A DNA stretch of 64,000 nt from a virus (taxonomy: Duplodnaviria; Heunggongvirae; Uroviricota; Caudoviricetes): the IMG/VR virus record IMGVR_UViG_3300036768_001066, one strand, 5' to 3'. Below are positions 15,979 through 40,928 of the stretch, piece by piece. Within the stretch, counting starts at the first letter, position 1, and each line of letters starts with the position of its first letter. The notes below the pieces were generated by a model. It was not told the origin of the DNA and did not search any database. It saw only the letters and a program-made list of their open reading frames with translations. A program made the translations under genes and the position numbers.

Positions 15979-18900
15979 TCAACTCATGAGCCCCGACAAG
16001 AAGTCTGAGTCGTAACTTTTCTGCGGCTCATCCCTCGTACTCGTCAGCTTGTTTGTGATAAGCGTCCTGTACTTCTCATCGAGTCCATCGTATATATTCT
16101 CCACAATCTCGTAATACTGGTCCGAAGAGAAAAAAGGTACGAGATTTACCATGGACATAGCAATGTCGTCATGCCCTATCTGGCTCGAATACGAGCCTTT
16201 CTTGTCCAATCCGAAAGACATCAGCTCGTTGAACGTGTTCTTCTCGCAAGGTATAATCCTTCCGGATCTCACCAAGCGCCTGAATTCCATGCAGTACTCG
16301 TACTTGTTCTTAGGGTTCAGCTTGATGCCAGGGAGCATCCTCTTGGCATTCTCCGAGTGCTTGGTGTGTATGAACATGTCCTCGTAGAACTTGGTGTGGT
16401 TGCTCATGCGCTCGTACAGGAGGTTGCCCTTGAAGTCCATCTCGAGCACTATCTTGACCGCGTCCTCTCCAAACACGTCGTACAGAAGAGTCTCCACAAT
16501 AGGCTGCAGGTCCTCTACGCCGGCCTTATTAGACCTGAACATTCCCACCTGGAGCAAAGACATGAAGTCGCCCTCATCATTTGCGGTGAGCTGCTGCTCT
16601 ATCATCTTCTCCGGCATCGGCACAAGCTTAAAGATGTTCAGTATGGTGTAGTCACCTCCCCCACCTCCGGCCGTATCTATTGTGAAAACGAACCTGTCCG
16701 TATCCTTTATCGTATCAAGATTGAACTTGGGGTGCCACTTGAGGTGCTCGTAGTTGATCTCCTTGTTGTGCAAATCGGTTATCTCGTGCCACACGAATTC
16801 TGTGGTGAGTCTCTTGACCTGACCAAGCGTCTTGTGGTCCAATAATAATTTGGATGACGCGAGGAACTGACAGTTGTGTACCGCACGACCCTCCACGAAA
16901 TAAGAGTTGTCCACCTCGACCTCCAGATTGTAAACCGTGCCGAAATATGGGTATTTTTTCGCAGCTTTGACCTGTCCGGACACGCTTAGTTTGTGGCACC
17001 TTATCCTGCTCTTCTTGTTATCGTTATTAGACGTGGCTTTGTTTATCCGCAATTGGTGGGCTTCATTGGCGAAAACATCTCGGCCGACCACTTTACGGAT
17101 GCCGGATTTATTACCAAACGTTATACTGCATGTATATCCGAGAGCATGCGATAACAATTGCAACTGATAAGCCAACGTGTATGAAACTGTAGTATACCCG
17201 TCGTGCGTCTTGTTCTTATAAAAACCGTCGCCATTTATCAATGTATCATACACGATTTGTTCGTGCCCGGCTATTAACTCAAAGGGTATTTTTTTTTCTA
17301 AAGCTCCAGCTCCGCAGTTTTTAACAAAAAACTCGACAAGGTCGGCATCGTTAACAATTATTTCGGTAGAATTATCCCTGACACGTACATGCACCTTACC
17401 CGAAGATACAGTAGCAAGGCACCGTAGGATCTGGTCCCTGAACCCCGTCTCTTCTTTATGTAAGCCGAAACTGACCTGCGATTTGCGGGCGCATCCCTTG
17501 GCTATGTACCAACCAATCAACAACGCCATATCTTCCGATATGACCTTGGATTTTTTTAGAAGTGGCTTGGCATAACACAGCCAATCTTCTGTACGTATCG
17601 AATCCGCGGAGGTCCACTCGTATCTACGACCTTCCAATACCGTCCGTATCGGGTGTTCGTTTGTGCATTTTATAGGCCGGTTATTCCCGTACGAATAGAG
17701 CTCGTGCAGTTCCCCGTCATACACGCGCTCCGACACCACCTTGACTTTATGGTAGCGATTTGAATGTGTGAGGACTAAATCGCCGGGGTGTATGTCTCTA
17801 ATTGGTTTCACTCCATCGATTGTAGTAACCAAGCTATCACCTGTAAAACATCCATATTCCTGATTGAAGTCCTCCTCCGAACCGAGGTTGCCTATCTCAC
17901 GCCTCATCCACGCCTCATCCCTTCCGGGCACCTGCCACCAGTCTATTCGTATAGGCTTGAACTCGTTCTTGCCCTCGAGCGCGGCGGTGTATATGTCGTA
18001 GAACTTATTCATACCGTTCGGCGTGGACGTTATGACCACCCTTGATATGTTAGACGACGAGAGCGTCGGGTATACGGACCGCCAGAACGGGTCTATGAAG
18101 TTCTGGTGTATGTGAGCAAACTCATCACAGTACAGGAAGTGAATGGCGAAACCGATGGCCGCTGTCTTGGTAGTGTTACGTCCAAAGAGCCTGCACCCAT
18201 TATCGAACTTCATGGTCATCTGGTTGTTCAGTATGATACCAGGCTTCAGGAAAAACGGAAGGTTCTGCAGTATGACCTTTATTTTATCTATGATCTCTAT
18301 GGTGGTAGCTCCCGTATTGGAGAGCACCATAAGGTTCTTGTCAGAGTGGAACAGCAAGTACCACGTAAGGAATATGCCTGTGGTTATAGTATTGTGGGTC
18401 GGAATAAAATGGTCGGTTAAGTACAGATGGTCTTGGTTGTCAACCATTATGCACTGAACGTCTTCATGCCCGTCTAATTCAACAGAAGCTATCCCGCGCC
18501 TGCGACCCCAATCATAATGCTTATCCCGTATAAGGCGTTGCTTTCTGTCCAGCCTGAATATAGGATATGCGAATCCATTCGGGAGCATCAGTTTCAACCT
18601 GTGTGCAGGCAGGCAAGCCACTCGCGTGCCATCCTCTTTGCGGTATCCAGTTTCCTTGACAGAGCGGCACACAACTATGCCGAGGGATTCACACAATTGT
18701 TGTACATCGTCGGCCAACCTCGGCGACGAAGTGGTAAACACTACATTGGACTTTTTAGTAACGTGTCCATTGGTATCCATCAGACCTTGTAATAATGATA
18801 GCCTCTGCTGTATAGAACCATATAAATATATTTCGGGTATGAATTTATGTTCGGACCTCTTGCCCATTAGCCCTAACGATTTTAGCTCCGTTATGACCTC

Positions 18901-19809
18901 ATTTGTGTATCCTGATTTTTTGGTAACAAAATACGCATATCTGTCATGACCATTTTGTTTAATGCACACATCATGTGCTTCGCATACTTCGTTGTTCAGG
19001 TATTCTACTATTTGTGAGTCGGCGCTGGCCACATTTAGATACTTATTTGACATGCAGCCATCTCCGAGCATAAGTCCGAGAAAATATGGGTCTATATTAA
19101 AATCTGCCTCGGGAAAATTTACCGGTTCAGATGTTCGGACAAACCACTTATAATCCCCGCGCTTTGACAGAAGTCCTTTAGATACTATCTCGCGTAGCTC
19201 CAGTGTTTTTTCGGTTCCATCTACGGTCTCTACTGTCCACAGGTGCTCGCCGCAAGACCTGACAGTGGACCCGTCTGAAAATGTTATATTGTATACATCT
19301 CGCTTACCTTGCGGGAATATGCCAACCACGCTGGTTAGGTTGCCAGAGGCATCGTATATTTTATCGCCTAAAAGAAGGTCGCCGAACCTTGCCTTGCCAG
19401 TAGATTTCCAGACAATTGCGTCCAAGGGCTGAGCTTTTCCCACCTGCCTTGGGGACAGGAACACGCAGAACCTCGAGTCCTGAAAATCCCTGAGTACGTC
19501 CTCCTGGTAGTCACGCAGCTTAATGTTCTTTACGCCTTCATCCGTCATGGAGAAGCAGTAGTTGTTGGCGAAATATATGACGTCCCTCGCGCAGCGCTGT
19601 ATCTCTTCCATCTCCTCCACTGTATACTCGTATACTATATTGGCAGAGCGCCACTCGGGCTTGCCGTCCCAGAATGGAGTAGACTTAACGTCGACACCCG
19701 CGTCTATGTTCTCGAGAAGCTCATTTACCTTCTCGGTGGTCCATACCTGCGACAGGTTCTTGACGTTCTGTTCCTCGTGCTGCTTCTTGTATCTGTTATT
19801 TTCTTCCAT
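15979..19809 (-). CDS. Terminase large subunit (T4 gp17-like) interrupted by two inteins; spliced product ~602 aa
   Basis: Exteins give Walker A SPRQVGK|TITTG, DNGCRLFG, Walker B FLYCDEFAHI, VVITSTPNGMNKFYDIYTAALEGK and a nuclease domain; closely resembles gp17. Confidence 0.9.
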   Translation of the reverse strand: MEENNRYKKQHEEQNVKNLSQVWTTEKVNELLENIDAGVDVKSTPFWDGKPEWRSANIVYEYTVEEMEEIQRCARDVIYFANNYCFSMTDEGVKNIKLRDYQEDVLRDFQDSRFCVFLSPRQVGKAQPLDAIVWKSTGKARFGDLLLGDKIYDASGNLTSVVGIFPQGKRDVYNITFSDGSTVRSCGEHLWTVETVDGTEKTLELREIVSKGLLSKRGDYKWFVRTSEPVNFPEADFNIDPYFLGLMLGDGCMSNKYLNVASADSQIVEYLNNEVCEAHDVCIKQNGHDRYAYFVTKKSGYTNEVITELKSLGLMGKRSEHKFIPEIYLYGSIQQRLSLLQGLMDTNGHVTKKSNVVFTTSSPRLADDVQQLCESLGIVVCRSVKETGYRKEDGTRVACLPAHRLKLMLPNGFAYPIFRLDRKQRLIRDKHYDWGRRRGIASVELDGHEDVQCIMVDNQDHLYLTDHFIPTHNTITTGIFLTWYLLFHSDKNLMVLSNTGATTIEIIDKIKVILQNLPFFLKPGIILNNQMTMKFDNGCRLFGRNTTKTAAIGFAIHFLYCDEFAHIHQNFIDPFWRSVYPTLSSSNISRVVITSTPNGMNKFYDIYTAALEGKNEFKPIRIDWWQVPGRDEAWMRREIGNLGSEEDFNQEYGCFTGDSLVTTIDGVKPIRDIHPGDLVLTHSNRYHKVKVVSERVYDGELHELYSYGNNRPIKCTNEHPIRTVLEGRRYEWTSADSIRTEDWLCYAKPLLKKSKVISEDMALLIGWYIAKGCARKSQVSFGLHKEETGFRDQILRCLATVSSGKVHVRVRDNSTEIIVNDADLVEFFVKNCGAGALEKKIPFELIAGHEQIVYDTLINGDGFYKNKTHDGYTTVSYTLAYQLQLLSHALGYTCSITFGNKSGIRKVVGRDVFANEAHQLRINKATSNNDNKKSRIRCHKLSVSGQVKAAKKYPYFGTVYNLEVEVDNSYFVEGRAVHNCQFLASSKLLLDHKTLGQVKRLTTEFVWHEITDLHNKEINYEHLKWHPKFNLDTIKDTDRFVFTIDTAGGGGGDYTILNIFKLVPMPEKMIEQQLTANDEGDFMSLLQVGMFRSNKAGVEDLQPIVETLLYDVFGEDAVKIVLEMDFKGNLLYERMSNHTKFYEDMFIHTKHSENAKRMLPGIKLNPKNKYEYCMEFRRLVRSGRIIPCEKNTFNELMSFGLDKKGSYSSQIGHDDIAMSMVNLVPFFSSDQYYEIVENIYDGLDEKYRTLITNKLTSTRDEPQKSYDSDFLSGLMS
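16873..17850 (-). other. Intein 2 in terminase (326 aa, LAGLIDADG homing endonuclease domain)
   Basis: Starts CFTGDSLVTTIDG, ends YFVEGRAVHN followed by extein C; LAGLIDADG motifs LLIGWYIAKGC and DTLINGDGFY. Confidence 0.8.
18391..19434 (-). other. Intein 1 in terminase (348 aa, LAGLIDADG homing endonuclease domain); inserted between Walker A Lys and Thr; first residue Ala
   Basis: Starts AQPLDAIVWK, ends HFIPTHN followed by extein T; LAGLIDADG motifs DPYFLGLMLGDGC and LSLLQGLMDTNGHV; removal restores GKT. Confidence 0.8.
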
Positions 19810-20806
19810 TGTACAAGTCTTCCAGTTTCTTTATCCTGGACTTCAGTTCTTTTATCTCGGACTCGAGCCACTCCTTGGTTGGTAGCTCCAGCATAGTGTC
19901 CACATCGTCCTCGGTTATCTTAGCTCCGACCGTGTTCTTTGCCGACCACTGCAGTCCGTACTCCATGTTGAACTTATCCTCCGAGCCGAGGTTGAGTATC
20001 TCATTGCGTTTCCAGGCCTCGTCCCTGCCCGGCACGAGGTTCCACAAATACCTCAGCGGCTTGAACTCGTTGGCCTCGTCTTCAGCTTTTACGAAGAGAT
20101 CGTAAAACCAGTTGTATCCGTTCGGCGTCGATACAACGATCACCCGGCAGTCCTTGCCCTTCGCCATGTGTGGTGCAATGCTCCTGAACACCTTATGCGC
20201 GTCCTTTATGAGTCCAGCCTCATCCATGAATATGAAATTTGTCTGACCACCAATCGGCACATCCGGAGTGGCGCCCTTTGCAACTATTCTGCACCCGTTG
20301 TCGAATTCTATCGACTTTGCGTTCCACGATATTATGCCGGGTTTCATGAAGAACGGCATACTTGCGTAGAGCGCTTTTACCTTGTCTATAAAAGCCGCAG
20401 CCCCCTCGTTATTGACAGTGAGGTACAGGAACATTTTGTCAGAATACGTGGTCGCATAATGCAATGCTATTATCGCCCCGAGCAAGGTCATGCCCATCTG
20501 CCGAGACTTGGCGACCACCACAAACTTATAGAACTCCGTGTGCTGTATGAAGTCTTTCTGGTAGTCGTAGAGTTTTATTTTACCAAGGGTAGGTGATAAT
20601 ACTGGCGAATTGAATCCGAGATATTCGACAAACATCATTGGGTCGCCTATGGAACCCATTATGTCACGCTCTTTATCAGTGAGATGAAAATCGAGATTAG
20701 CCTTTCTTAGGTTTACGTCGCCCCTGTAGTAGGGAGTCTCTTTGAACATGGAGTCATTACCATGCAGTTCCGACCTCAAAAAGTCGATAATTCTTGTGTT
20801 CCACAT
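19796..20806 (-). CDS. Intein-free paralog of the terminase ATPase domain (336 aa, no nuclease domain)
   Basis: AKSRQMGMT Walker A, NGCRIVAKGAT, FIFMDEAG Walker B, VIVVSTPNGYNWFYDLF...NEFKPLRYLWNLVPGRDEAWKRNE parallels the adjacent terminase exteins; overlaps terminase start by 14 nt. Confidence 0.7.
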   Translation of the reverse strand: MWNTRIIDFLRSELHGNDSMFKETPYYRGDVNLRKANLDFHLTDKERDIMGSIGDPMMFVEYLGFNSPVLSPTLGKIKLYDYQKDFIQHTEFYKFVVVAKSRQMGMTLLGAIIALHYATTYSDKMFLYLTVNNEGAAAFIDKVKALYASMPFFMKPGIISWNAKSIEFDNGCRIVAKGATPDVPIGGQTNFIFMDEAGLIKDAHKVFRSIAPHMAKGKDCRVIVVSTPNGYNWFYDLFVKAEDEANEFKPLRYLWNLVPGRDEAWKRNEILNLGSEDKFNMEYGLQWSAKNTVGAKITEDDVDTMLELPTKEWLESEIKELKSRIKKLEDLYNGRK

Positions 20807-20836: not shown

Positions 20837-21415
20837 CTATAGGGAAAAATTTTCGAGGAACATAAACGCGCACTGCCTGGCACTAAGACCGGCCGTTTCT
20901 ATGACCATGTCTGGGTCCTTTGGGACCTCGTACGGCGAGTCTATCCCGGTGAATCCCTTTATCTCACCCGCCCGGGCTTTTTTATACAGGCCTTTCGGGT
21001 CGCGGTCCTCGCACACGTCGAGCGAAGTGGACACGAATACCTCGAAGTAGTCCTTACCAATGATGCTGCGTACCATCTGACGGTCCGTCTCGTACGGGGA
21101 TATGAAGCAGGCGAATACTATTATGCCTGCGTCGTTGAACAATTTGCAAGTCTCGGCTATTCGCCGCAGGTTCTCCTTCCTGCCCTCGGGAGAGAACCCA
21201 AGCCCGGAGCACAGTCCCATTCTAACGTTGTCGCCGTCGAGTATGTACGTTGCGTAGCCACTCTCGTTAAGAGTCAACTCTATGTTGCTCGCTATTGTCG
21301 ATTTACCGGAACCGGAAAGTCCGGTAAACCAGATGGTCCTACCTCTCTGGTTGAGCACCATCTCCCGGTCCTCTCTCCTCACCAGGTGATTGTGTGGGTG
21401 AATGTTTTCTTTCAT
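20837..21415 (-). CDS. cysC: Adenylylsulfate (APS) kinase
   Basis: WFTGLSGSGKSTIA, LDGDNVRMGL, FISPY..DR, RDPKGLYKKARAGEIKGFTGIDSPYE match CysC nearly motif-for-motif. Confidence 0.85.
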   Translation of the reverse strand: MKENIHPHNHLVRREDREMVLNQRGRTIWFTGLSGSGKSTIASNIELTLNESGYATYILDGDNVRMGLCSGLGFSPEGRKENLRRIAETCKLFNDAGIIVFACFISPYETDRQMVRSIIGKDYFEVFVSTSLDVCEDRDPKGLYKKARAGEIKGFTGIDSPYEVPKDPDMVIETAGLSARQCAFMFLENFSL

Positions 21416-21679
21416 GTTTGATTCCCCAGTTTATTTTGTACCATACGCGCTCGTGCACATAGATAGTATTATTTTATAGTCTCGAACCCACTCACGAGCG
21501 CTCCGTACTTGAGCTCCTCCGTTATTATCCATGTCAGGAACAACATGTCGAGAGACCCGATATGCGTCACGTCACTGCCTTGGCGAAGTGGATCTACAAA
21601 TTCCCTCCCCATAGATGTTCTATGGTTAAATTATCATCAAAATCTATATCTCTTATCATGCCAATTATTATCTGCCATG

Positions 21680-22429
21680 TCACTTTATTATTTGTATTTG
21701 GGATGGGTCCCATACGACTATCTCGGACACCTCGTCTATCGGCGTCTTGTCTCCGTCCTTGCCGACGACGAAGATCCCGTCGTATCCGTTCTTCTGTAGT
21801 AATTCGTGAAAGTTCCAGCGGCCGAGCTTTTGGATAACCCAGTTGGCGAGGCCACCGTCAAATTCAACGTCGGCCCTCATATCGTTGAATCGCACCACAG
21901 CAAGCTCCTTGTACCCTTCAAGTATGTCCTTCTTGGCAGCATCTTCCTTTTTCAGATAGATGCTCGGACCGTACACCTCGTCGTCAGTGCCCCACAGTTC
22001 TTTTTTGGGAACAACTGCTATCTCGACCACTTCGTCGTGGTTTGTATCGCGTACGGTCAGTTCAAATCCTTCGGGAATCTCCTTGTTCGGCTTGAAGTAC
22101 GACGGCACGCCTTTGAGTTTGGATAGATCCTCTCTTAGGTAAATCTCCTCGTAGCTGCCAAGCATCGACCATGTGCGAAGATAGAACGGGTTTTTAACAT
22201 CGAGGTTTGCCTCGATGACGCGTGATCCGTACTCGCGGGCATAGTCCTTGTCAATGGTGAAATAGAACCCTCGTCCATAATAACCCTCGTCGGTCTGCCC
22301 CATATATGAGGCGTCGAACTTGTCGAACTTGGAATTGGTGCCGTGATACACGGTCAATAGTTGTCCGTTCTTCGATACCTTAGAATTATCGAAACTCCTG
22401 AACTCGTTTATGTCCCTCAGGTGCTTCAT
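21680..22429 (-). CDS. PARP-like ADP-ribosyltransferase (H-Y-[E] class catalytic core)
   Basis: VYHGTNSKF ... YGRGFYFTIDKDYAREYG parallels the PARP LLWHGSR ... FGKGIYFAD ... S..Y signature. Confidence 0.5.
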   Translation of the reverse strand: MKHLRDINEFRSFDNSKVSKNGQLLTVYHGTNSKFDKFDASYMGQTDEGYYGRGFYFTIDKDYAREYGSRVIEANLDVKNPFYLRTWSMLGSYEEIYLREDLSKLKGVPSYFKPNKEIPEGFELTVRDTNHDEVVEIAVVPKKELWGTDDEVYGPSIYLKKEDAAKKDILEGYKELAVVRFNDMRADVEFDGGLANWVIQKLGRWNFHELLQKNGYDGIFVVGKDGDKTPIDEVSEIVVWDPSQIQIIK

Positions 22430-22540: not shown

Positions 22541-23365
22541 TTATCCGAAGTATTCATCATCTAAATCAAAGTGGTCCTCGTCTTCGTTCTTATTTGCGTC
22601 CTTGTCCTTCGGTGTTACGTCAGCCAGAGGGTTGACTGGCCTTGCTCCAGGATCGGTCAGGCGCGGTTTCTCCTCCTTCTTGTATTCGAACTTGGCGTCC
22701 TCGATAAGCTTGGTCTGTATGGTCTCCATGAGGTTCTTCGTGCCCCTTACCTTCACCGGTCCGTCAAGCTTGTCTATAGTTTCCTCCTGTGGTTTGGCAT
22801 TGCGCATCTCCTCAACCACAGTATTGTCGTGCTGCTGCTTCTTGTAACCCTCCTCGAGAGTTACCATGTATGCGGCCTGGTGCTTGATTGTCGACATCAA
22901 CTGATTGTTGAGCGTGGCGAGCGCCTCGAAATTTCTCGGGTGCGTGTTGCCCATGTCTATGTCCTCGAGCAGCTTTATCATGGCCAGCTGCGTGAACTTC
23001 AGGGAGAACATTATCGACGACAGCGCCATCTCGTCTATCTTCTTCTTGGCGAGAACGTAGTCGTTCTTCTTTATGTACTTCTGGTCAACGTAGAACTTCA
23101 TGACCGAGTTGAGCACCTTCTTAGCCTCCTTCTCCAGCTGCACGCGCTCGGCATGTATGTTCATGGGCTCGGAGTTCGGGTGGTCAATCTTGTCGAGCGT
23201 ACCGTCCGGATCTCCGTCAAGGTCCATACCCTTGACCTGCTTGACCGCGACCGAGTTCGGGTTGGCATTCGCCGGCGACTTGGGCGTGGTGTTGACCCCC
23301 ATGTTGTTCATGATGGCCTCAAGGTTCGCCTTGATCTTCTCCTGAACATCTTTCTCTTTACTCAT
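22541..23365 (-). CDS. Hypothetical acidic protein (274 aa)
   Basis: ORF track. Confidence 0.5.
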   Translation of the reverse strand: MSKEKDVQEKIKANLEAIMNNMGVNTTPKSPANANPNSVAVKQVKGMDLDGDPDGTLDKIDHPNSEPMNIHAERVQLEKEAKKVLNSVMKFYVDQKYIKKNDYVLAKKKIDEMALSSIMFSLKFTQLAMIKLLEDIDMGNTHPRNFEALATLNNQLMSTIKHQAAYMVTLEEGYKKQQHDNTVVEEMRNAKPQEETIDKLDGPVKVRGTKNLMETIQTKLIEDAKFEYKKEEKPRLTDPGARPVNPLADVTPKDKDANKNEDEDHFDLDDEYFG

Positions 23366-23856
23366 GGCTTCAATTTTATTAGTGTTTCGTGACCGTCCGC
23401 ATTCGTGAACCGCATCAAATCTATAGTAATTTTAGGCATACTGAATGCAAGATTACTGTACTTCCATCCTGTGCCTTTATTTATATATGCTATCGTCATG
23501 TGAGGATTATACTCATGGTCGATTGTGCATGGGAACTTCTTCTTTATCTTGTCGTGGTACGTGTGCAAAACCTTACAGTTAACGCCGAACTTCAGCACGT
23601 CGAACCTCGGGTCCGAGTCGAACAAACTGACCGGCAAGAACTCTATTTCTGTCTGCCTGCATATAGTATCCAGATACAGCATCATGTCGAGCGGATTCTC
23701 CACTTGGTGCACGCCGTATAGGACTGTTATGTGAGGATATAAGCTAAGCCCATGGTCACCGTCCGGATCGTAAACATCGTCTTGATCTACGTGCATTAGT
23801 ACCTCGGACCATCCCCTCAAGGGGACGTTTAACATAACACATCCATATTGTCTCAT
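23362..23856 (-). CDS. 2H phosphoesterase (LigT / cyclic phosphodiesterase / Acb1-like)
   Basis: Two H-x-T-x motifs: PHITVLYG and PHMTIAY. Confidence 0.65.
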   Translation of the reverse strand: MRQYGCVMLNVPLRGWSEVLMHVDQDDVYDPDGDHGLSLYPHITVLYGVHQVENPLDMMLYLDTICRQTEIEFLPVSLFDSDPRFDVLKFGVNCKVLHTYHDKIKKKFPCTIDHEYNPHMTIAYINKGTGWKYSNLAFSMPKITIDLMRFTNADGHETLIKLKP

Positions 23857-23956
23857 TATGATATGTTCCTTGCATTTTCAAGTATGTTAACAAGTTTCAT
23901 CAGAGGATATATCAAGAATATGTTCTTGATCGTCTCGAAGAATACTTTGGGTTCCT

Positions 23957-24573
23957 TCAGATCCTCGAATCTTGTCTTTCAGCTCCTCCGGAGCGAAGCT
24001 CTGTGCCTCGTTCATTGAGAATATCTGGAAAGTCATCATCCGTTTTATTTATATATCCATCTATGACGCTATTATTCTTATTGATATAGGTCTGGTACGA
24101 GCTGCCGAAAATTAACTTGCACATGAGGTTGTGCGCTATCGCGCGCAGCATCTTATCGTCCATCCGGTTGTCGTGCAGCTTAGGTGGTGGTTTCTTCGCC
24201 CAGTAGAACCCTTGTAGTCGGATAGGACGTACAGCAGACCTGCGTACTCAGGAACCTCCTCTACCTTGACCAGGCCCTCTGGAACGAGGTACGTGAAGTA
24301 GTTGGGTATGAGCACGTACGTTTCTGTTTCGTCGGTCTTCTTCCCGCGAACACATTTGCTGTATGTCTTTGTGGCTTTGCGCGCCAGTAGCAATTTGTGC
24401 TTGTGTTCTTTCTCGAAATCCTTCCTGAAGTCAGACCTGCTTATCTTTCGCACTCGGACAAGCCCTGACACGTGAAATTCGCTACTATCGGCGAATACCC
24501 CTTGAGGTACAGGTCCATCATGATGCTGGCCTGGATGTTCTTTGACTCTGGGGTAATAAAAAGCCCAGATCAT
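23957..24573 (-). pseudogene. Frameshifted/decayed gene region (ORFs 24136..24573 and 23957..24163 join after a 1-nt shift; region 24574..24800 fragmented)
   Basis: Reading ...LSDYKG then FYWAKKPPPKLHDNRMDDKMLRAIAHNL continues in another frame; no intact long ORF. Confidence 0.35.
24049..24058 (-). promoter_or_regulatory. Promoter-like motif GGATATATAA inside the decayed region upstream of the 2H phosphoesterase gene
   Basis: Same recurrent motif. Confidence 0.3.
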
Positions 24574-24810
24574 CTGGACTTCTATTTATCGTACGTACGT
24601 TTATGATTTTTATGATGGAGACATCCACGCCTCATTTTCGCGCGTATCATTCCAATGGGAGAGCTTGAATATGTTCGAGCCCATCTTGTAGATGCCGCCC
24701 TTTAGTACCTCTTTCCGTGACCTTTAAGTCGATGTCACAAATAGTTCTTTCATTGTGGAGGTCGGCCTTGGCTCTCCTATGGTTTGTTTTTTCATTGGCG
24801 TATTAAAAAT

Positions 24811-24833
24811 GGAGGGGGACTTCCACCCCCTCC
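24811..24833 (-). terminator. Rho-independent terminator
   Basis: GGAGGGGG-TGGAAGT-CCCCCTCC hairpin then ATTTTTAA on minus strand. Confidence 0.6.
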
Positions 24834-24841
24834 GTTATTAC

Positions 24842-25723
24842 TTAGTTAAGGATTTCAAGGATCTTGTTGGTCTCGCGCTCGATCTCCCCTGCGTCCAAGC
24901 TTCTCCAAAGCTCGGTGTAGCAGTTGAATACCTTCCAGCTGTCCAATGGAGTGTCCAGCGTTTCTTTGGTCATTTCATTGAAAGGTACTTTGATGCCTGT
25001 GATGAGCGCGTCCTCCTTGGTGCCGATTCTGTCGGTCTTCGAAGAGGCCATCTTGTCGACAAGCAACTTCCAAATGGTATCGTTGCCCTTCTTGCCGATT
25101 TTGTTTACCAACGAGTCGGACAACTCGCGCACCGTGATGGTTTTGCCACCAATGCTTTTTAAGCGCTTGATTGTTTTTGTAACGTCAAGCTTAGGCAATT
25201 GCAGCATGAACGCCTTCAATTCCTCGTTAACGTTATTAGTCGTCAGGTGTTTCACCCGGAACGATGATCCCTTGTAAGTCATCACCGCACCGTTAGAGCA
25301 CCACTGGCGCATCAATCCATAACGGATTGAAAGACGCTTTGTACCGTCGGTGCTGTTTGTCAACCACACCATCTCGTGGAACACGTCCCCGTTGATCTTG
25401 TGCGACTTGCCGCGAAGCTTAAGCTCCTGGTACCCGGCTTTAACCGTGATGTTGTAGAACTCAGGGTTGAATATGCCGTCAATAACCGACAGCAAAGTTT
25501 TTACCGCATCATTGAAGTCTACGATTTCGTAGATCTTGCTCGGGCGGAACTTAGATACGATGTTGCCCTTGTCGCGGGTAACGATTACTCCGCCTTCCTT
25601 CTTAACAGAGATCATCGCTGTTCTGTCGAGGATTGCCTTCTTATTGTAAGGCTCGTTGGCTGCTAATTTGCCGACTACTTTTTCGTGCGCTGGTGTCAAC
25701 GCTATTTCCATTGTTCTTGTCAT
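24842..25723 (-). CDS. Hypothetical protein (293 aa)
   Basis: ORF track; strong terminator hairpin just after stop. Confidence 0.55.
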   Translation of the reverse strand: MTRTMEIALTPAHEKVVGKLAANEPYNKKAILDRTAMISVKKEGGVIVTRDKGNIVSKFRPSKIYEIVDFNDAVKTLLSVIDGIFNPEFYNITVKAGYQELKLRGKSHKINGDVFHEMVWLTNSTDGTKRLSIRYGLMRQWCSNGAVMTYKGSSFRVKHLTTNNVNEELKAFMLQLPKLDVTKTIKRLKSIGGKTITVRELSDSLVNKIGKKGNDTIWKLLVDKMASSKTDRIGTKEDALITGIKVPFNEMTKETLDTPLDSWKVFNCYTELWRSLDAGEIERETNKILEILN

Positions 25724-25786
25724 GTTTTAATTGTTTTAATTGATTAACATAACAAAGATAGCAACTTCCTGGGAACTATAATACAA

Positions 25787-25954
25787 CTACCCGAAGAAAT
25801 TTCCAACATTTCTCAGGCAATAGTGTCCTATTATATGGGCTATCTGCTTGTGGAACCAGCAGCGCTTTATATTGAGATCCTCAGCCATCTTGTGAAGGTT
25901 CTCTATGCTGTACGACAACACCAGGTGTCTCTTGTTATCGCAGTAGAACTCCAT
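25787..25954 (-). CDS. Small conserved phage protein (55 aa; MEFYCDNKRHLVLSYSIENLHKMAEDLNIKRCWFHKQ...)
   Basis: Internal ATG of ORF 25787..26215, whose upstream part is an RS-rich artefact overlapping the next gene. Confidence 0.35.
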   Translation of the reverse strand: MEFYCDNKRHLVLSYSIENLHKMAEDLNIKRCWFHKQIAHIIGHYCLRNVGNFFG

Positions 25955-26033
25955 ATTCTGAAAATAAAAACCCCGCGATAGTGCGGGGGCTGCCGGTCGA
26001 TTTATGCATGACCTAAGCATGGAGGCATATATC

Positions 26034-26549
26034 CTACCTGAGCAGCATGTCAGCTGCGCAAGTCGAGGCCCATGCCCAAGGCTTGGCCTTGACGATGTAA
26101 CCCGAACCGGAGAAGAATCCAGTGGCGGCGTTGTACACCAGGTGCGAGCCCTCGTGCGGGTCCGGGTTGATGTCGACGTGGGTTTCGACCAACTTGTACC
26201 CCGGCTTACGTGCATACTCGTACACGCCAGACTTCGTCAGCTCTGTCTCGAGGTACTCGGCCACTTCAAATATACGCTCCACCTCGCCCCAGATCTTCAT
26301 GAATATCTCGTCTGGAGTCTGCAGCTTCTTAGGCGAACTCTTCTTGACCGAATCCTTGTAAAACAAAAAGTGCGCTCCCTTGCCCTCGTGGCGCAATAGA
26401 ACGACAGTACAGTACCTCAGGTACCATCCAGAATCGGCCGCGTCACAGCCTACCATTATTGTTACATCCTTGTGGAGAGATACGTAGTCCTTGACGTATG
26501 CTGCCAGATCCGGCACTTGCTCCTCTCCAAACTTCTTAAACACTTTCAT
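26034..26549 (-). CDS. Hypothetical protein (171 aa)
   Basis: ORF track. Confidence 0.5.
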   Translation of the reverse strand: MKVFKKFGEEQVPDLAAYVKDYVSLHKDVTIMVGCDAADSGWYLRYCTVVLLRHEGKGAHFLFYKDSVKKSSPKKLQTPDEIFMKIWGEVERIFEVAEYLETELTKSGVYEYARKPGYKLVETHVDINPDPHEGSHLVYNAATGFFSGSGYIVKAKPWAWASTCAADMLLR

Positions 26550-26776
26550 ATTCCTATGCTTGTTTTGGAGAGAAATTCGAGGGTCTCTCCTACCCTCTTA
26601 TATTCCTATCGGGTGTGACCGATAGATCGTGCGCCGCCCCCAGTGAGCGATACGCAATACGAAGTCGCGCGCAAAAACGCAGTCTACGCCACTTTGATTT
26701 GATAGCGCGCTCATATTGTTTTTTCGTCAACGATTCCATCCTGTATTCAGGTTCAAAGTTCATAATCTATTTATCT

Positions 26777-27088
26777 TTAGAACAACGTCGCAGGTAAACC
26801 TTTTTCGAGTTTATCCACGTATTTTTTTAAAATATCCCCATGACAAGCCTTGGGTTTGCACCAGCACACCAGGGTCTTTCCCTTCAGTTCGTGCAGGGAT
26901 TCCATCAGCGAGGGATTCGATAATAGGTACTTCTCGTACTTCTCGAGCGCTTCCTTCCTTGACGCAACCCTGAACTCGGCGAGCGTTCCCTCCCTGTGCG
27001 AATACGGGTTGCCAAATTTTGTAGGTCTCCCGATATACACAAAATTTGATTCGTCACCTTTATCTTTTATATTTATTACTTTACACAT
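26777..27088 (-). CDS. DUF4326-like protein
   Basis: VYIGRPTKFGNPY ... CWCKPKACHGDIL resembles the DUF4326 signature. Confidence 0.5.
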   Translation of the reverse strand: MCKVINIKDKGDESNFVYIGRPTKFGNPYSHREGTLAEFRVASRKEALEKYEKYLLSNPSLMESLHELKGKTLVCWCKPKACHGDILKKYVDKLEKGLPATLF

Positions 27089-27112
27089 ACGTACACTTAA
27101 ATCCTTGTAGAT

Positions 27113-28192
27113 TTACGAAAATTCTTCGCCTGTCTCCTTGTATTTCGGGTTAATCACCTTAACTTTCAGCCATGTCCCGTCCTTGGCCCTGCGCACCTCG
27201 TAAGGAGTTATTACAATGCCCTCCTTAATGTGCAGCTCCTGGCCGGACACCTTCTCGTTACCGAGCGCAAGCTTCTTGAGCTCCGGCACGTTCTCGTAAG
27301 GTCCGTCGTACAGAACAGGAACCCAATTCTTTCTGAAGTACTCCGGAAGCTGATCGTAAGGATATGTCTTTCCGTTTATCGTCACACCGAATATCTTCAT
27401 AGTCGGGTTGACGAAACCATACTTCATGGCCTGACAAGGAATACCCTCACCGAACACCTGCACCACCATCTCATCGCCGGAGCTGAGCCCGGCGAGGGCG
27501 GACAGATTGGGCAGCAAGTCCAGTATGTTGGAGAATAACCCTATATCGTTAACCGCCATCCAGTAGAAGTTGGTATCGCTCTCCACAAGGCACAAGCCCT
27601 CGGCGTTGTAGTTCTTGGTAGACACCCACTTTGCCTTAACCTGGTTGTCGTTGTGCACAGAGATGTATGCCACGAGCTGCGACCCGTGCAGCTTCTCCGT
27701 TATCACGACACGCTCCCCGTCCACGAAGTCAGCAGCGTAAACACCGAACTGTTCGACGTCGTGCTTTATCGAGAAGTTGTCGTACTCGATAGGAACCGCC
27801 ACGCCCTCCATCTCGGAAGGAACCCTCGGCACGTACTTGGTTATACCAAGAATCTCCGACAGGTCCTCGTCGTTAGGCAGCTCGCTTATGTGCTTACCGC
27901 ACTGCGCGAACACAAGCTCGTTAGGTATGATGATACCACAAGATAGCTCACCTCTCAAACGAATAGAACCAACCCTGTTCTTATCAGGACCGTGCAGGTA
28001 GTTCTTGTACTCCTTCTCAAGCTCACCGTTCAGGATGGACTTCTCGGGAGCGAATACCACGTCCTCACCACCGTTGTACAGTCCCTTCTGCACAACTACC
28101 TGGTATGTGCCAATCTTTCCGATTTGCAGTTTCGCCGCATCCGGGTGATCGAACACCTCAATCTTTGTCTTTATTACTTTCCAATTGCTCAT
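27113..28192 (-). CDS. ATP-dependent RNA ligase (Rnl2-like nucleotidyltransferase) with N-terminal extension
   Basis: Motif I VITEKLHGSQLV (KxHG, compare T4 Rnl2 EKIHGTNFS). Confidence 0.55.
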   Translation of the reverse strand: MSNWKVIKTKIEVFDHPDAAKLQIGKIGTYQVVVQKGLYNGGEDVVFAPEKSILNGELEKEYKNYLHGPDKNRVGSIRLRGELSCGIIIPNELVFAQCGKHISELPNDEDLSEILGITKYVPRVPSEMEGVAVPIEYDNFSIKHDVEQFGVYAADFVDGERVVITEKLHGSQLVAYISVHNDNQVKAKWVSTKNYNAEGLCLVESDTNFYWMAVNDIGLFSNILDLLPNLSALAGLSSGDEMVVQVFGEGIPCQAMKYGFVNPTMKIFGVTINGKTYPYDQLPEYFRKNWVPVLYDGPYENVPELKKLALGNEKVSGQELHIKEGIVITPYEVRRAKDGTWLKVKVINPKYKETGEEFS

Positions 28193-28424
28193 TGTTTACC
28201 TCCTTTTTAATATTGTAAATACCGTATTCTTTTTTCTCAACTTCAAATTCTGCCCGGCACCAATCGCAGCAAAGCTCACCCTTGTGTTCCTTTTCGTACT
28301 CCTCGTAAAAGAAATCGTCGTACTCGATGTTGTGTCCTCCACAACTCGGGCAGTCCCACTCGGCAGTCCCGAGCGCGCACTCCGGCAGGTCGCAGTGCTG
28401 TATGTAAACCATCTCTATATCCAT
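28158..28424 (-). CDS. Small zinc-ribbon protein (88 aa)
   Basis: CDLPEC...CPSCGG...CCDWC cysteine pairs. Confidence 0.45.
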   Translation of the reverse strand: MDIEMVYIQHCDLPECALGTAEWDCPSCGGHNIEYDDFFYEEYEKEHKGELCCDWCRAEFEVEKKEYGIYNIKKEVNNEQLESNKDKD

Positions 28425-28431
28425 AATACTT

Positions 28432-28848
28432 TTACACGTGGAGACCTCCGATGTTCCCCTTATACAGGTCCTTCATCGTAATCCGTTTCCCTGTGACGTG
28501 GTCGATGACGTAGCCGTCCTGGTCCCGGTAGGTCCTGCGCTTGTCGTTGCGCTCTCCGGTGCCTATCTGCGAGTTGCGGATGCCCTGGATCTTGCGGCCC
28601 TCCCCGTTGTCGTGGATGGCCCGCAGCTTGTCCTCCAGGCGTTCCCAGGCCGCGGCCTCGTTCTTCTCGCGCGTCCTGTGCTCCTCCGACCTGACCTGCA
28701 TGCTGGACGGAATATGCGTGAGCACGACGCAAGTCTCGACCTTGTTCACCTTTTGCCCGCCCTTGCCGCCAGACCTGCAGTACTTGCGGTCGACGTCGTT
28801 GCGGTTTAGCACGAAGTTTTGTTGTGGTTTATCGTCCATGACTGCCAC
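28432..28848 (-). CDS. Release-factor-like GGQ-domain protein (ArfB/RF-family peptidyl-tRNA hydrolase)
   Basis: SGGKGGQKVNKVETCVVLTHIP GGQ motif; C-terminal RTYRDQDGYVIDHVTGKRI like RF1/RF2 RTYNF..RVTDHR. Confidence 0.65.
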   Translation of the reverse strand: MAVMDDKPQQNFVLNRNDVDRKYCRSGGKGGQKVNKVETCVVLTHIPSSMQVRSEEHRTREKNEAAAWERLEDKLRAIHDNGEGRKIQGIRNSQIGTGERNDKRRTYRDQDGYVIDHVTGKRITMKDLYKGNIGGLHV

Positions 28849-29181
28849 CGTGACGATGCTCGTCTGGACCCTGCCTCTCTTCTCCGTAGGGGGTATTCGA
28901 GTCCAACGGTGAGAGCCAGATGGCGGCTTTGCGATAAATAGACGTCATTTCTTCTACAAGAAGTTTTGCATCATCTCTACCGGCCGCCGCACGTATCTCA
29001 AGAACTACCGATTCTTTTTTCATGGCTTTTTGTTTTTGTTATTCAATCACGCTGCCACTCGGCAGCACTGTTATCTGCATTTCTATACCGAGCTCACCCT
29101 GGTCGGTGACGAAGAACCGATCCTCCGTCTCAATCTTTATTATCTCCAGCTCCTTGAACTCCATACCGTAATAATTTTTGG

Positions 29182-29254
29182 AGCCGATGACAGGATTCGA
29201 ACCTGCGACTTTCGGTTTACGATACCGACGTTCTACCAGCTGAACTACATCGGC
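29182..29254 (-). tRNA. tRNA-Thr (anticodon CGT)
   Basis: Canonical cloverleaf: GCCGATG/CATCGGC acceptor, TTCGAAT T-loop, loop ATCGTAA. Confidence 0.7.
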
Positions 29255-29363
29255 AAGTTGGTGACCAGCCCCTATTTACGGACTTAAGGCGAGGACGCGC
29301 TCGGATATTTGCCAGGGAAGCATGCTCCCCTTCGGTCACCTCTTAATCTATTTATCTGGATAT

Positions 29364-29753
29364 TTATTCCACCGAGGTCTCAACCCTGTAGTTGAGCAGG
29401 CGGTTAAAACGTTCGTCCATGGAACCACGGTCCGTTTCCGTCGGGGGTATAAAAAGGTGGTCACCGTCGCTAACAGCGTCCTTGCGGAACGGGTTGGTTC
29501 CGATCATTGGGGACGGGTCCGGCTTGAAATCGTTGGCCCTACATTCCTTCTCCTTTGCCTTCACGAAATTAAAGAACTTGTCTATGGCCGCCACCGCCAC
29601 CACATCGCTCGTCATGCTGTCATTGCCGTAATTCTCTGTCACGAACTGATCCTTCAGCTCGCGTAGTCTCTTCATGTTCATTGTGTTCCTGCCTTTCCTG
29701 TCAATTTGTCCTTGAGCGTTCTTCATGTCTATAAGGTTAATTTCTATTCTCAT
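29364..29753 (-). CDS. Hypothetical protein (129 aa)
   Basis: ORF track. Confidence 0.45.
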   Translation of the reverse strand: MRIEINLIDMKNAQGQIDRKGRNTMNMKRLRELKDQFVTENYGNDSMTSDVVAVAAIDKFFNFVKAKEKECRANDFKPDPSPMIGTNPFRKDAVSDGDHLFIPPTETDRGSMDERFNRLLNYRVETSVE

Positions 29754-29989
29754 TCCACCTCCTCATATTTATCAACCAGTTCAACAATTTCATTACCATC
29801 TGTCAAAACAACATCAGGCAATGCTTTACCGTCTTCATCTATTGCAGGCCAAAATACATATCTATGTGGTACTTTTGGCTCATCTGTATAAGGGTGTTTT
29901 GTTGCAAGTCCACGATATTGAATGTAGCCATGTTTTGAATGGTTTACACCATAACCACGTTTCAAATTTTTTACTTTTATATTTTCCAT
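29750..29989 (-). CDS. Hypothetical protein; start placed at MENIKVKNLKRGYG
   Basis: ORF 29750..30043 with the more plausible internal start. Confidence 0.4.
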   Translation of the reverse strand: MENIKVKNLKRGYGVNHSKHGYIQYRGLATKHPYTDEPKVPHRYVFWPAIDEDGKALPDVVLTDGNEIVELVDKYEEVE

Positions 29990-30248
29990 ACGACAAAGAT
30001 ACGTATAAATATCGTAACAACCAAATTTTTTTACAACTACCACGAACCGCTAACAAAATTAGGGCTTAGGGCTGATAACTAAGCACTCAGCCTTTGTGCT
30101 ACTATTTTACTTCGGTGGTTGTATGAACATTAGAGCCTTGAATGCCCCAACTTCATAAACACCCGACCGTTATATTCCAGTTGCGAAAAGCAACCGAAAA
30201 TATAACACGGGCTAAGAAGAAATAAAAACAACCCAGCTCACCTGTGTA

Positions 30249-30446
30249 CTAAATAACTTCCGTCAAAATTCTCCACTCCTTTAGCATATTGCCATCAAAA
30301 GTTGCTTCAATCGGCACACCTTTTAATTTATCAACACTATCAACTTTTGCCTCCTTTAATAATTTTGATAGGTAACGCATAATCTCAGCGTATTGCTTAT
30401 CTCTGTCGGCTTCTGTCCATTTGCAATTTTTGTCCCACTTAATCAT
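30249..30446 (-). CDS. Hypothetical protein (65 aa)
   Basis: ORF track. Confidence 0.35.
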   Translation of the reverse strand: MIKWDKNCKWTEADRDKQYAEIMRYLSKLLKEAKVDSVDKLKGVPIEATFDGNMLKEWRILTEVI

Positions 30447-30701
30447 TTCGGCATCCCAAGCACATTTCCTCCGTGTCCAAAGGTTACGCTTTCAATTTTC
30501 CCTAATTTCTTTTCCATTGTCATTTAGTTTTTAAATTATAAATTCAGAAGCCTTCCCTTCTGTTGTTTTTACTTACTGACAGTAGCTCTCGTAGCGGGGC
30601 AATACCTGAGAATCCTATTAAAAACATATTTTTTCCTTTTTAGTTTTAGTTATCTGTAATCAAACAGTTACTGGCAATATACAAAATTTAGAACTAACTT
30701 G

Positions 30702-30784
30702 TAGCGCTGGCCGGACTCGAACCGGCGATGCGTTTCCGCGCCTCCTTATGAGGGAGGTCCAATACCATCTCTGGTCACAGCGCT
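30702..30784 (-). tRNA. tRNA-like, anticodon CAT, long variable arm, possible 8-bp acceptor
   Basis: Stem CCTCC/GGAGG, loop CTCATAA; variable CGCGGAAACGCATC; T-arm GCCGG TTCGAGT CCGGC. Confidence 0.45.
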
Positions 30785-31041
30785 AAGTCTTCCCTCACAA
30801 TTCTCTCGATCAGGTCAACGTCCAGCTCCTTGAGCACGGTCTCGTTGCCGTTCTCGTCAGTGGTCTTCGTCCTGCGCCAGATGCGGTCGCCGAGTTTCTG
30901 CCTGGTGACTATCCGGTACTGAGAGTGCGGTTCCGCCGGGAAGAGCGTAACACACAGAGAGCCGAGGCGAGTGTAGTGCACCCAGATCCTCCTGAAATTC
31001 ACGAGCCGCTCTCTGAGCTCGCGTTCTACGTTACATTCCAT
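30775..31041 (-). CDS. Hypothetical protein (88 aa) between tRNA genes
   Basis: ORF track. Confidence 0.35.
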   Translation of the reverse strand: MECNVERELRERLVNFRRIWVHYTRLGSLCVTLFPAEPHSQYRIVTRQKLGDRIWRRTKTTDENGNETVLKELDVDLIERIVREDLAL

Positions 31042-31054
31042 CGTTCATACATTT

Positions 31055-31145
31055 TGGTTGCCCCGGTGGGATTCGAACCCACGTTGGAAGTTACCTTCTC
31101 CGGATTAAGAGTCCGGTACTTTCGGCCAGCTAAGCGAACGGGGCA
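31055..31145 (-). tRNA. tRNA-like, anticodon CTT by loop CTCTTAA, long variable arm, CCA encoded
   Basis: Acceptor TGCCCCG/CGGGGCA, T-arm GTGGG TTCGAAT CCCAC, variable AGAAGGTAACTTCCAAC. Confidence 0.45.
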
Positions 31146-31157
31146 GTTTAAATTTTG

Positions 31158-31245
31158 TGCGCCCGGCAGGATTCGAACCTGCGATGGTGGTTACCCCACT
31201 CCACATTAAAAGTGTGGTGCTCTCGGCCAACTGAGCAACAGACGC
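31158..31245 (-). tRNA. tRNA-like, anticodon TTT, long variable arm (88 nt)
   Basis: D-arm GCTCAGTTGGCCGAGAGC, stem CCACA/TGTGG, loop CTTTTAA, variable AGTGGGGTAACCACCATC, T-arm GCAGG TTCGAAT CCTGC. Confidence 0.5.
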
Positions 31246-31269
31246 AAAATTTTACTTCGTTCTTATTTG

Positions 31270-31342
31270 TGCGCCCGTCTGGAGTCGAACCAGACCTGAA
31301 TGGTTAAAAGCCATTTGCCTACAACCGGTTTGCTACGAGCGC
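31270..31342 (-). tRNA. tRNA-Lys (anticodon TTT), 73 nt, weak D-stem
   Basis: Stem AATGG/CCATT, loop CTTTTAA, T-arm TCTGG TTCGACT CCAGA. Confidence 0.55.
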
Positions 31343-31491
31343 ATGATTGATGCCTCGCAGTCAGCAAGGCGTTACCGTTTATATTTTCGTTTCTGCTTCA
31401 TTTTCGTTTCTTAAATTTTTTGGCTCCCATGATTAACGACCTTTGGGTATTAGTATCCGAAACGGTCATGCGGATCTGCCATTATTTTTTG

Positions 31492-31573
31492 AGCCTGAGG
31501 AGGGATTCGAACCCCCGTTGTTTGAGTTCCTGCTTACAAGGCAGGCGCAGTCGACCACTGATGCCACTCAGGC
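31492..31573 (-). tRNA. tRNA-Thr (anticodon TGT) with extended 12-nt variable region
   Basis: Acceptor GCCTGAG/CTCAGGC, stem CCTGC/GCAGG, loop CTTGTAA. Confidence 0.55.
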
Positions 31574-31761
31574 AATTTACATTCTTCTCTTAATGCCCGT
31601 ATGCTCAAGATAAGTTGTTATCGAGAACTGTACAGACGGTTTAAATTTTCCGCCCATTATCTTGCAATAATAATCGGACATAGCGTTCAATTTATATTCG
31701 ACAGGTTTATCTATCTCGTATAGTTCGACCTGCCTCGTTTTTATCTCTCTTGTCTTCATCG

Positions 31762-31834
31762 AGCTACCGGCGGGGATCGAACCCGCGACCTCGTCCTTAC
31801 CAAGGACGTGTTCCACCGACTGAACTACAGCAGC
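31762..31834 (-). tRNA. tRNA-Thr (anticodon GGT)
   Basis: D-arm GTTCAGTCGGTGGAAC, stem CGTCC/GGACG, loop TTGGTAA, T-arm GCGGG TTCGATC CCCGC. Confidence 0.65.
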
Positions 31835-31924
31835 ATAATGAACAGGTGAAATATCGATGCAGTGTGAGATTCTGCTTCTTCTTTCATAGGACGATTGGCA
31901 TAACCCCAATCATCTTGTTCACTG

Positions 31925-31998
31925 AGCATGTAGTCGGGATCGAACCGACTCTGTTCCAGCTTGGAAGGCTGGCGCACCACCACTTATGCGTTACATGC
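31925..31998 (-). tRNA. tRNA-Gly (anticodon TCC)
   Basis: Acceptor GCATGTA/TACATGC, stem CCAGC/GCTGG, loop CTTCCAA. Confidence 0.6.
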
Positions 31999-32091
31999 AA
32001 AATACGTTCTCTCCACTTGCTACCTCCAACTGGTCCCAGGTTCAGCGGTTAAGAGTCAGGTACATCTCATAGTCACCCAGAGAGAACGTGG

Positions 32092-32178
32092 AGCGGGTAG
32101 TGAGATTCGAACTCACGATCTGACCTTATCTGACCAGCTTGGAAGGCTGGTGCGATGGACCAACTACGCGACACCCGC
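32092..32178 (-). tRNA. tRNA-like, anticodon TCC, long variable arm; anticodon arm identical to the canonical tRNA-Gly(TCC) next to it
   Basis: CCAGCCTTCCAAGCTGG followed by TCAGATAAGGTCAGATC, then T-arm GTGAG TTCGAAT CTCAC. Confidence 0.45.
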
Positions 32179-32264
32179 AAATATTTTAGACAGGGACTGA
32201 AGGGAATTTTCACCTTGGCTCCGGCGGCCTTTCGGTCTCACGATCTACATCAGTTTGTCCTTTG

Positions 32265-32336
32265 TAACGGAGGGCAGAATCGAACTGCCGGGGTCCAGGC
32301 TTATGAGACCAGAAGGTTACCAACAACCTCTCCGCA
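32265..32336 (-). tRNA. tRNA-like, probable anticodon CAT, irregular acceptor and anticodon stems
   Basis: T-arm GGCAG TTCGATT CTGCC; loop CTCATAA with a T-T mismatch in the stem. Confidence 0.35.
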
Positions 32337-32529
32337 ATGTTCAGCGGTTCTCCTGGACCCTATTACCAGGATTTACTTTGGATTGTCGAGTTCTAAATTT
32401 CTCAATAATGAACGACGACAACAGAACCACTTAATGTGGCGGACAAGTGAGATAATGACCTTGTGCGAGATTCGAGGTCCTCTCTCATTGGGTGATCGGT
32501 ATCGCAACCCCGACCATTCTTGTCCACTG

Positions 32530-32602
32530 AGCGGGGGACGGGATTCGAACCCGCGACCTTCACCTTGGCAAGGTGACGCTCTACCAACTGAGCTACTCCC
32601 GC
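32530..32602 (-). tRNA. tRNA-Gly (anticodon GCC)
   Basis: GCGGGAG TA GCTCAGTTGGTAGAGC, stem TCACC/GGTGA, loop TTGCCAA. Confidence 0.7.
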
Positions 32603-40916: not shown

Positions 40917-40928
40917 GCGCGTAATACA

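Follow-up and report, generated by a model that had tools for sequence, protein, structure and literature searches.

An intact APS kinase gene in a jumbo-phage genome

The DNA analysed here is a stretch of 64,000 nucleotides (the window), in which nearly all genes lie on the minus strand. Its phage genes encode a tail sheath, a T4-type portal, gp2- and gp15-like proteins and an intein-laden large terminase, and the window further contains a sigma factor, RNA-repair genes, an NAD-salvage cluster and 20 tRNA genes. We assign the source to the T4-like jumbo phages. The cysC gene described below is on a bona fide viral genome, with viral genes on both sides, and an identical kinase protein is on record in a 373,759-bp JGI contig and in Logan assemblies. 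Megablast of the locus gave no match among deposited phages, and tblastn returned five records only, mostly dubious or bacterial.

The interval 20837-21415 (minus strand) is exactly one open reading frame, from ATG to stop, for a protein of 192 aa. An earlier note, made from the letters of the sequence, had called it a near-textbook CysC with three motifs and had proposed a search with the APS_kinase profile. All three motifs are present (GLSGSGKST at residues 32-40, LDGDNVR at 59-65 and KGFTGIDSPYE at 153-163), and the product matched Pfam APS_kinase PF01583 end to end, over profile positions 1-152 of 152 (221.5 bits, cut-off 21.1; E 6.5e-66), as well as NCBIfam NF003013, adenylyl-sulfate kinase (252.2 bits, cut-off 163), and TIGR00455 (235.6 bits, cut-off 138.7). 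Among solved structures the best match is to the kinase domain of human PAPS synthetase 1 (PDB 2ofw, E 6.8e-55), and the best matches together comprise kinase domains of human PAPS synthetases and the APS kinases of plants, cyanobacteria and mycobacteria (E 1e-47 to 7e-55).

Catalytic residues missing on alignment, which the earlier note had named as evidence against its assignment, were not what we observed. In an alignment of the product with viral and bacterial homologues (A1), the Walker-A P-loop GxxGxGKS/T is present with G32, S36, G37, K38, S39 and T40 invariant, as are L59, D60, G61 and D62, which align with LDGDN of PAPSS1. We take the aspartates of the LDGD motif to be the counterparts of Asp61 and Asp63 of the Penicillium enzyme, the Mg-binding and catalytic aspartates. 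The APS-binding residues and the lid are also invariant: R65, F74, R79, N82, S106-P107 (FISP) and F155, T156, G157 and I158 (KGFTGID). Both termini agree with those of the homologues, indicating that the product is full length; it is covered by the kinase domain alone, with no sulfate-adenylylating domain in the same polypeptide. At the level of sequence, 20837-21415 is thereby confirmed as the gene of a genuine, phage-encoded CysC-type APS kinase.

The nearest cellular kinases are CysC proteins of Bacteroidota (Chitinophagales, Ekhidna, Flavobacteriales) with 57-62% identity, suggesting that the host phylum is probably Bacteroidota. Viral and Bacteroidota sequences interleave in a neighbour-joining tree of kinases that is unbootstrapped and poorly resolved. 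Like bacterial CysC (EC 2.7.1.25; PF01583, TIGR00455), the phage product is a single-domain P-loop kinase of ~200 aa with all motifs; unlike the bacterial gene, that of the window is found outside any cellular sulfur operon, in a jumbo phage between an ADP-ribosyltransferase-like gene and a terminase. APS kinases have no family of their own in PHROGs v4. In the PHROG phrog_10255, labelled only 'kinase', the APS kinase matches positions 4-84 and the nucleotidyltransferase discussed below matches positions 130-226, and this is probably a kinase-nucleotidyltransferase fusion family of isolated phages.

The neighbours are those that had been noted before, terminase genes on one side and an ADP-ribosyltransferase on the other. 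The upstream boundary of the locus is an ART-PolyVal ADP-ribosyltransferase-like gene (21680..22429, minus strand; Pfam PF18760, E 8.9e-17), found in the same position in the related loci L013, L019 and L020. Downstream are two Terminase_6N reading frames on the minus strand, one of 336 aa that forms the boundary (19796..20806; PF03237, E 2.1e-11) and is syntenic in all relatives, and the large terminase of 1276 aa (15979-19809), whose start the 336-aa frame overlaps. Two inteins interrupt the large terminase, neither of which occurs in the 601-602-aa orthologues of the relatives: intein 1 (aa 126-473, nt 19434-18391) lies inside the Walker-A loop (SPRQVGK|...THN|T), and intein 2 (aa 654-979, nt 17850-16873; CFTGDS...VHN|C) contains LAGLIDADG/Hint domains. 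The exteins share 97% identity with TerL of L019.

These flanks bear on the idea that the kinase has been repurposed to 3'-phosphorylate another adenosine-5'-phospho compound, such as an ADP-ribose-derived or signalling nucleotide, and acts with ART-PolyVal and a 2H phosphoesterase in host takeover or counter-defence. All four relatives have ART-PolyVal, an Acb1-like 2H esterase and the kinase as neighbours, and NAD/ADP-ribose genes (PARP, NAMPT, NUDIX, NADAR) are numerous in the window. However, the product is 57-62% identical to housekeeping bacterial CysC and keeps every APS-binding residue, and the ART linkage is specific to the window lineage: ART-PolyVal did not recur as a general cysC partner across 80 viral cysC loci (49 lineages). 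We regard repurposing as the least probable of the readings considered here, and as very improbable.

Remnants of two lost genes upstream of cysC

In the syntenic relatives L013-L015, L019 and L020, whose kinases are 61% (L013-L015) or 94% (L019 and L020) identical to the window copy, the gene order is ART-PolyVal, CTP_transf_like nucleotidyltransferase, DUF2061, APS kinase, terminase. The CTP_transf_like gene at this position encodes 139 to 321 aa in all five loci, and DUF2061 is a small membrane-protein gene preceding cysC. In the window, the gap between the ART gene and cysC is only 264 nt and holds remnants of both lost genes. A DUF2061 pseudogene (21342..21590, minus strand) was found by tblastn with the L019 DUF2061 protein (E 2e-25), the match being split over two frames with in-frame stops. 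DNA alignment revealed a TGG to TGA change and deletions of 1, 4 and 1 nt; the first ~15 codons are missing, start included, and the 3' end overlaps the start of cysC, as it does in the relatives. Next to it lies an 18-codon scrap ('FDDNLTIEHLW') of the nucleotidyltransferase gene (21609..21662, minus strand), with 14/18 residues identical to the 321-aa protein of L019 (tblastn, E 2e-4) and 86% identity over 56 nt (blastn). This scrap derives from the HNH-like N-terminal extension of an L019-type gene, the nucleotidyltransferase domain itself having been deleted, and the HNH-like element in L019 suggests a rearrangement associated with a homing endonuclease. The junction between the ART gene and cysC is 100% identical in the independent Logan assembly L001 and is therefore not an assembly artefact.

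The window kinase thus has no nucleotidyltransferase fused to it or within ~0.8 kb, and no intact DUF2061 gene next to it. Of the 120 best nucleotidyltransferase relatives (63% identity or more), none is carried on the 373,759-bp contig, which argues that no close copy has moved elsewhere, a statement that concerns close copies only. We also considered as a relocated partner g55 (41273-42112), which has a weak CTP_transf_like match; it was rejected, as it sits in the NAD-salvage cluster and matches the family profile with E 0.49, and it is most likely the NMNAT of the NAD-salvage pathway. Because the same flanks enclose an intact module in L013-L015, L019 and L020, we interpret the window cysC as the lone intact survivor of a virus-borne nucleotidyltransferase-DUF2061-kinase module.

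Retention of the kinase

The destruction of both the nucleotidyltransferase and the DUF2061 gene raises the question of whether cysC is itself a functionless relic, left by piecemeal loss of the module and not yet struck. The locus is also a recombination mosaic, with dS against L019 of 0.17 for the ART gene but 1.3 for cysC. Against such a relic, the catalytic motifs are all invariant, the same sequence was recovered in independent assemblies, and cysC has a dN/dS of only 0.025-0.028 against L019 and L020 at dS 1.3-1.6, a ratio that is by itself no proof of selection after the loss, since most of the divergence from these two kinases may predate it. Moreover, the DUF2061 remnant has 4 disabling lesions in ~175 nt (which could partly come from one messy recombination event) and the 579-nt cysC has none, compared with roughly 13 expected under neutrality at the lesion density of the remnant. 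In our view, the low dN/dS together with this deficit of lesions speaks for selection having kept the kinase since its partners were lost, and we consider a relic highly unlikely. A kinase kept while its partners were lost amounts to a natural dissection of the module, and suggests that the host supplies the kinase step inadequately.

Viral cysC genes and their neighbours

We surveyed 10 and then 80 IMG/VR loci with relatives of the kinase, which were dereplicated to 49 lineages; the loci examined were L002-L011, L013-L020 and L023-L092 (viral) and L093-L172 (cellular). At least one of the two partners, nucleotidyltransferase or DUF2061, is fused or adjacent to the kinase in 35/49 viral lineages. 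The nucleotidyltransferase occurs in 27 of the 49, always within 794 bp of the kinase (median gap 5 bp), and is fused to it in seven lineages, in both domain orders. L063 and L070 were left out of these counts, since the proteins matched there by the HMM are ordinary NadM-Nudix proteins. DUF2061, a two-helix membrane protein, is present in 29/49 lineages at a median gap of 14.5 bp and is fused to the kinase in eight loci; the same profile gave no match in any of the 80 cellular nucleotidyltransferase loci, although 13 of these have cysC. DUF2061 may anchor PAPS synthesis at the membrane. Examples of DUF2061 beside viral APS kinases are L004 9776-10948, L005 11033-11470 and L016 9519-10001, and the fusions are N-terminal. 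Many viral kinases carry a C-terminal HAD-hydrolase domain.

Sulfotransferases (Sulfotransfer_2 or Sulfotransfer_3/_1) were found in 18/49 lineages, at a median gap of ~800 bp from the kinase, and NAD-dependent epimerase/dehydratases in 14. Other recurrent neighbours are UDP-glucose dehydrogenase, GT2, GT10, GT1 and GT4 glycosyltransferases, FkbM methyltransferases, UDP-GlcNAc 2-epimerase, KdsA, KdsB and WbqC. On one large contig, DUF2061, a kinase-HAD protein and the nucleotidyltransferase close a complete glycan cluster with a sulfotransferase and the Kdo pathway. No PAPS_reduct, CysD/N, Sat or ATP-sulfurylase family appeared among the 25 of 92 neighbour Pfam families listed, so that such genes may still occur among the rarer families, and motif screens for CysH and Sat detected none in 2005 neighbouring proteins. 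With sulfotransferase and glycan genes recurring and assimilation genes undetected, the usual setting of viral cysC looks like a PAPS-supply-plus-sulfation cassette and not an assimilation operon.

Phage cysC as such is already documented. Chen and Banfield (the COBRA paper, PMC10914622) described 62 such genes in freshwater phages, with a bias to larger and huge genomes, and showed that they are transcribed in situ, phage transcripts exceeding bacterial ones in some lake samples; a 2026 mudflat survey (PMC13172472) listed cysC as one of the auxiliary genes that large phages and giant viruses carry most often. Both studies read the gene as part of assimilatory sulfate reduction. The window gene is likewise an APS kinase on a large phage genome; in contrast to those studies, in which the gene is treated in isolation and sulfotransferases are not discussed (a word search for sulfotransferases in PMC13172472 and in a third paper gave no mention), here it is the remnant of a linked module. 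What is new is this linkage of nucleotidyltransferase, DUF2061 and kinase.

A nucleotidyltransferase family as candidate ATP sulfurylase

The partner nucleotidyltransferase is a protein of ~130 aa with the signature GRxQPxHxGH ... NPFTTxQT ... IPDIESVNYGRGVGY ... ISATxIR (alignment A4). It scores 35-56 bits against NMNAT profiles (cut-offs 127-181), and over the N-terminal half only. The archaeal NMNAT 1f9a (48 bits) is its nearest solved relative. Between the DIE and GYE motifs of the nucleotidyltransferase ~25 residues are missing, the stretch at which, as we understand it, the nicotinamide-riboside half of the substrate binds in NMNAT structures. The family has ~3000 relatives, many of them in marine metagenomes, that are annotated only as 'cytidyltransferase-like' or 'NMNAT', and members were found in 195 representative cellular genomes. 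Fusions to cysC occur in Saprospiraceae, Chitinophagales and one Acidobacteria MAG; in Flavobacteriales the nucleotidyltransferase follows cysC, and L133 also has a CysQ-like phosphatase in the vicinity. Two Nitrospiraceae MAGs have the nucleotidyltransferase as the completing member of an operon with an Rrf2 regulator, a sulfite reductase-TusA and a CysH bearing the CC...CxxC...ECGLH signature of the Fe-S APS reductase, in which sulfate adenylylation is the only missing step.

These contexts raise the possibility that the lost nucleotidyltransferase is an unrecognised minimal ATP sulfurylase. Counting against it, most cellular matches (Thermodesulfobacteriota/Dadabacteria) have no sulfur genes nearby. 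Literature searches found no description of a cytidylyltransferase-type ATP sulfurylase, which may nevertheless exist elsewhere, and nothing relevant on DUF2061 and phage sulfotransferases or PAPS. The family offers a concrete candidate third type of ATP sulfurylase; if true, this would fill sulfur-pathway gaps in reconstructions of Bacteroidota and Nitrospirota.

The viral fusions resemble bifunctional PAPS synthases (human PAPSS1/2, bacterial CysNC, fungal and Aquifex Sat-CysC), with which the window protein shares a homologous kinase domain. In either domain order they would follow the same two-step logic, adenylylation and then 3'-phosphorylation. However, the domain joined to the kinase in the viral fusions is of the NMNAT-like HxGH type (~130 aa) and is neither a PF01747 ATP-sulfurylase nor a CysN GTPase, and the window protein has no second domain. 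A broader reading is that viral cysC is half of a compact, non-assimilatory PAPS synthase whose other half is the HxGH minimal ATP sulfurylase, shared with Bacteroidota and Nitrospiraceae; anchored by DUF2061, this synthase would feed phage sulfotransferases that sulfate glycans during infection. We put this forward tentatively, at somewhat less than even odds.

Possible fate of PAPS

In the interpretation that we favour for the window, with a probability of about 0.5, cysC encodes an orphaned but active APS kinase from the three-gene module, and its PAPS probably serves sulfation. The phage kinase would catalyse the reaction ATP + adenosine 5'-phosphosulfate -> ADP + PAPS; the phage would rely on the ATP sulfurylase of the host for APS, and the kinase would raise the PAPS level in the infected cell. 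We infer the catalytic activity, the reliance on host APS and the fate of PAPS from sequence comparison. A sulfotransferase, encoded by the host or in another part of the 374-kb phage genome, is the most likely consumer of PAPS, since 18 of the 49 viral lineages have one and the context is rich in glycan genes; it would sulfate a glycan or another macromolecule.

Dedicated PAPS supply adjoining a sulfotransferase is a feature of the rhizobial NodPQ and NodH sulfation cassettes. The related viral loci likewise place a private PAPS supply beside sulfotransferases and glycan-building enzymes. They differ from the rhizobial cassettes in that the candidate viral partner would be a different type of ATP sulfurylase, and the window retains neither sulfotransferase nor adenylyltransferase.

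That no sulfotransferase was recognised in the window had been stated before, and our searches agree. A six-frame scan with profiles built from the sulfotransferases of related viral loci was empty, and none was present among the Pfam labels of the window genes. With the 9.0 kb that precede the window (L012) and the 5.7 kb that follow it (L022) included, ~79 kb of the 374-kb genome are without a sulfotransferase, and there is none within ±10 kb in the syntenic relatives of the window phage.

This result is in accordance with the published reading of phage cysC as a classical auxiliary metabolic gene of assimilatory sulfate reduction (PMC10914622, PMC13172472), the former paper reporting in-situ transcription. 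According to this reading, the kinase would pull the unfavourable ATP-sulfurylase reaction forward, and host PAPS reductase (CysH) and sulfite reductase would carry the sulfur on to sulfide and to cysteine and methionine for virion production. The cellular contexts of the nucleotidyltransferase also point in this direction: in Flavobacteriia, cysC and the nucleotidyltransferase gene lie directly beside metK and ahcY (by Pfam) and metH/metF-like genes (by sequence only), a Bacteroidota context that would fit sulfur assimilation at least as well as sulfation, and the Nitrospiraceae operon combines the nucleotidyltransferase with an Rrf2 regulator, sulfite reductase and APS reductase. On the other hand, cysH, cysD, cysN and sat were undetected beside the kinase in the 80 viral cysC loci, where sulfotransferases and glycan genes recur, and the HAD-phosphatase and DUF2061 membrane-anchor fusions of viral kinases are alien to assimilation operons. 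We therefore consider the assimilatory reading unlikely, though a serious rival, and the feeding of cysteine synthesis less likely than sulfation. Of the two uses of PAPS that the earlier note had put forward, an assimilatory auxiliary function and the supply of a sulfotransferase, both are still live, and the comparative context leans to the latter.

If viral cysC is normally part of a PAPS-supply module for sulfotransferases, inferences of virus-driven assimilatory sulfate reduction need revision, and phage-directed sulfation of cell-surface or virion glycans would become a testable phenomenon.

Other features of the window

A second difference in gene content lies within the same 5-kb stretch as the cysC locus. 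Between the DUF932 and 2H-esterase genes, L013 (5120-6700) and L019 (4856-6445) have a gene of 526-529 aa; at that place the window has only a 145-aa open reading frame (24136-24573). The 526-aa gene could not be called a sulfotransferase, as it has no Pfam, NCBIfam or PHROG match. In the window, 23362-29023 (minus strand) holds an RNA-repair/translation-rescue set: a 2H phosphoesterase with weak similarity to Acb1 (23362-23856), an RNaseH_like protein (26034-26549), DUF4326 (26777-27088), an RNA ligase (27113-28192) and an RF-1/ArfB-like GGQ protein (28432-28839), all on the minus strand.

The NAD/ADP-ribose cluster occupies 35101-45215, again on the minus strand throughout, and comprises a PARP-domain protein (43932-45215), a CCA-adding/PolyA_pol enzyme (42246-43436), the NMNAT-like g55 (coordinates above; minus strand), a NUDIX protein (40018-40638), NAMPT (38306-39994), a second NUDIX protein (36860-37732), an NYN RNase (35717-36349) and NADAR (35101-35607). 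It looks like a cluster for NAD salvage and ADP-ribose processing, possibly acting in counter-defence.

The 20 tRNA genes form two minus-strand clusters, at 29179-32893 and 49344-52081 (Thr, Met, Lys, Gly; Arg, Ser, Leu). Several of the tRNAs outside class II are of unusual length (Lys 91 and 89 nt, Gly 90 nt, Met 84 nt, Thr 83 nt), suggesting introns or insertions. Directly past the window start lies a gene with a GmrSD_N domain (L012 16411-17406). The minus strand also encodes a long thymidylate-synthase-family protein (368 aa; 54371-55477) and a dCMP-deaminase-family protein (4462-5040), which could point to modified pyrimidines in the phage DNA.
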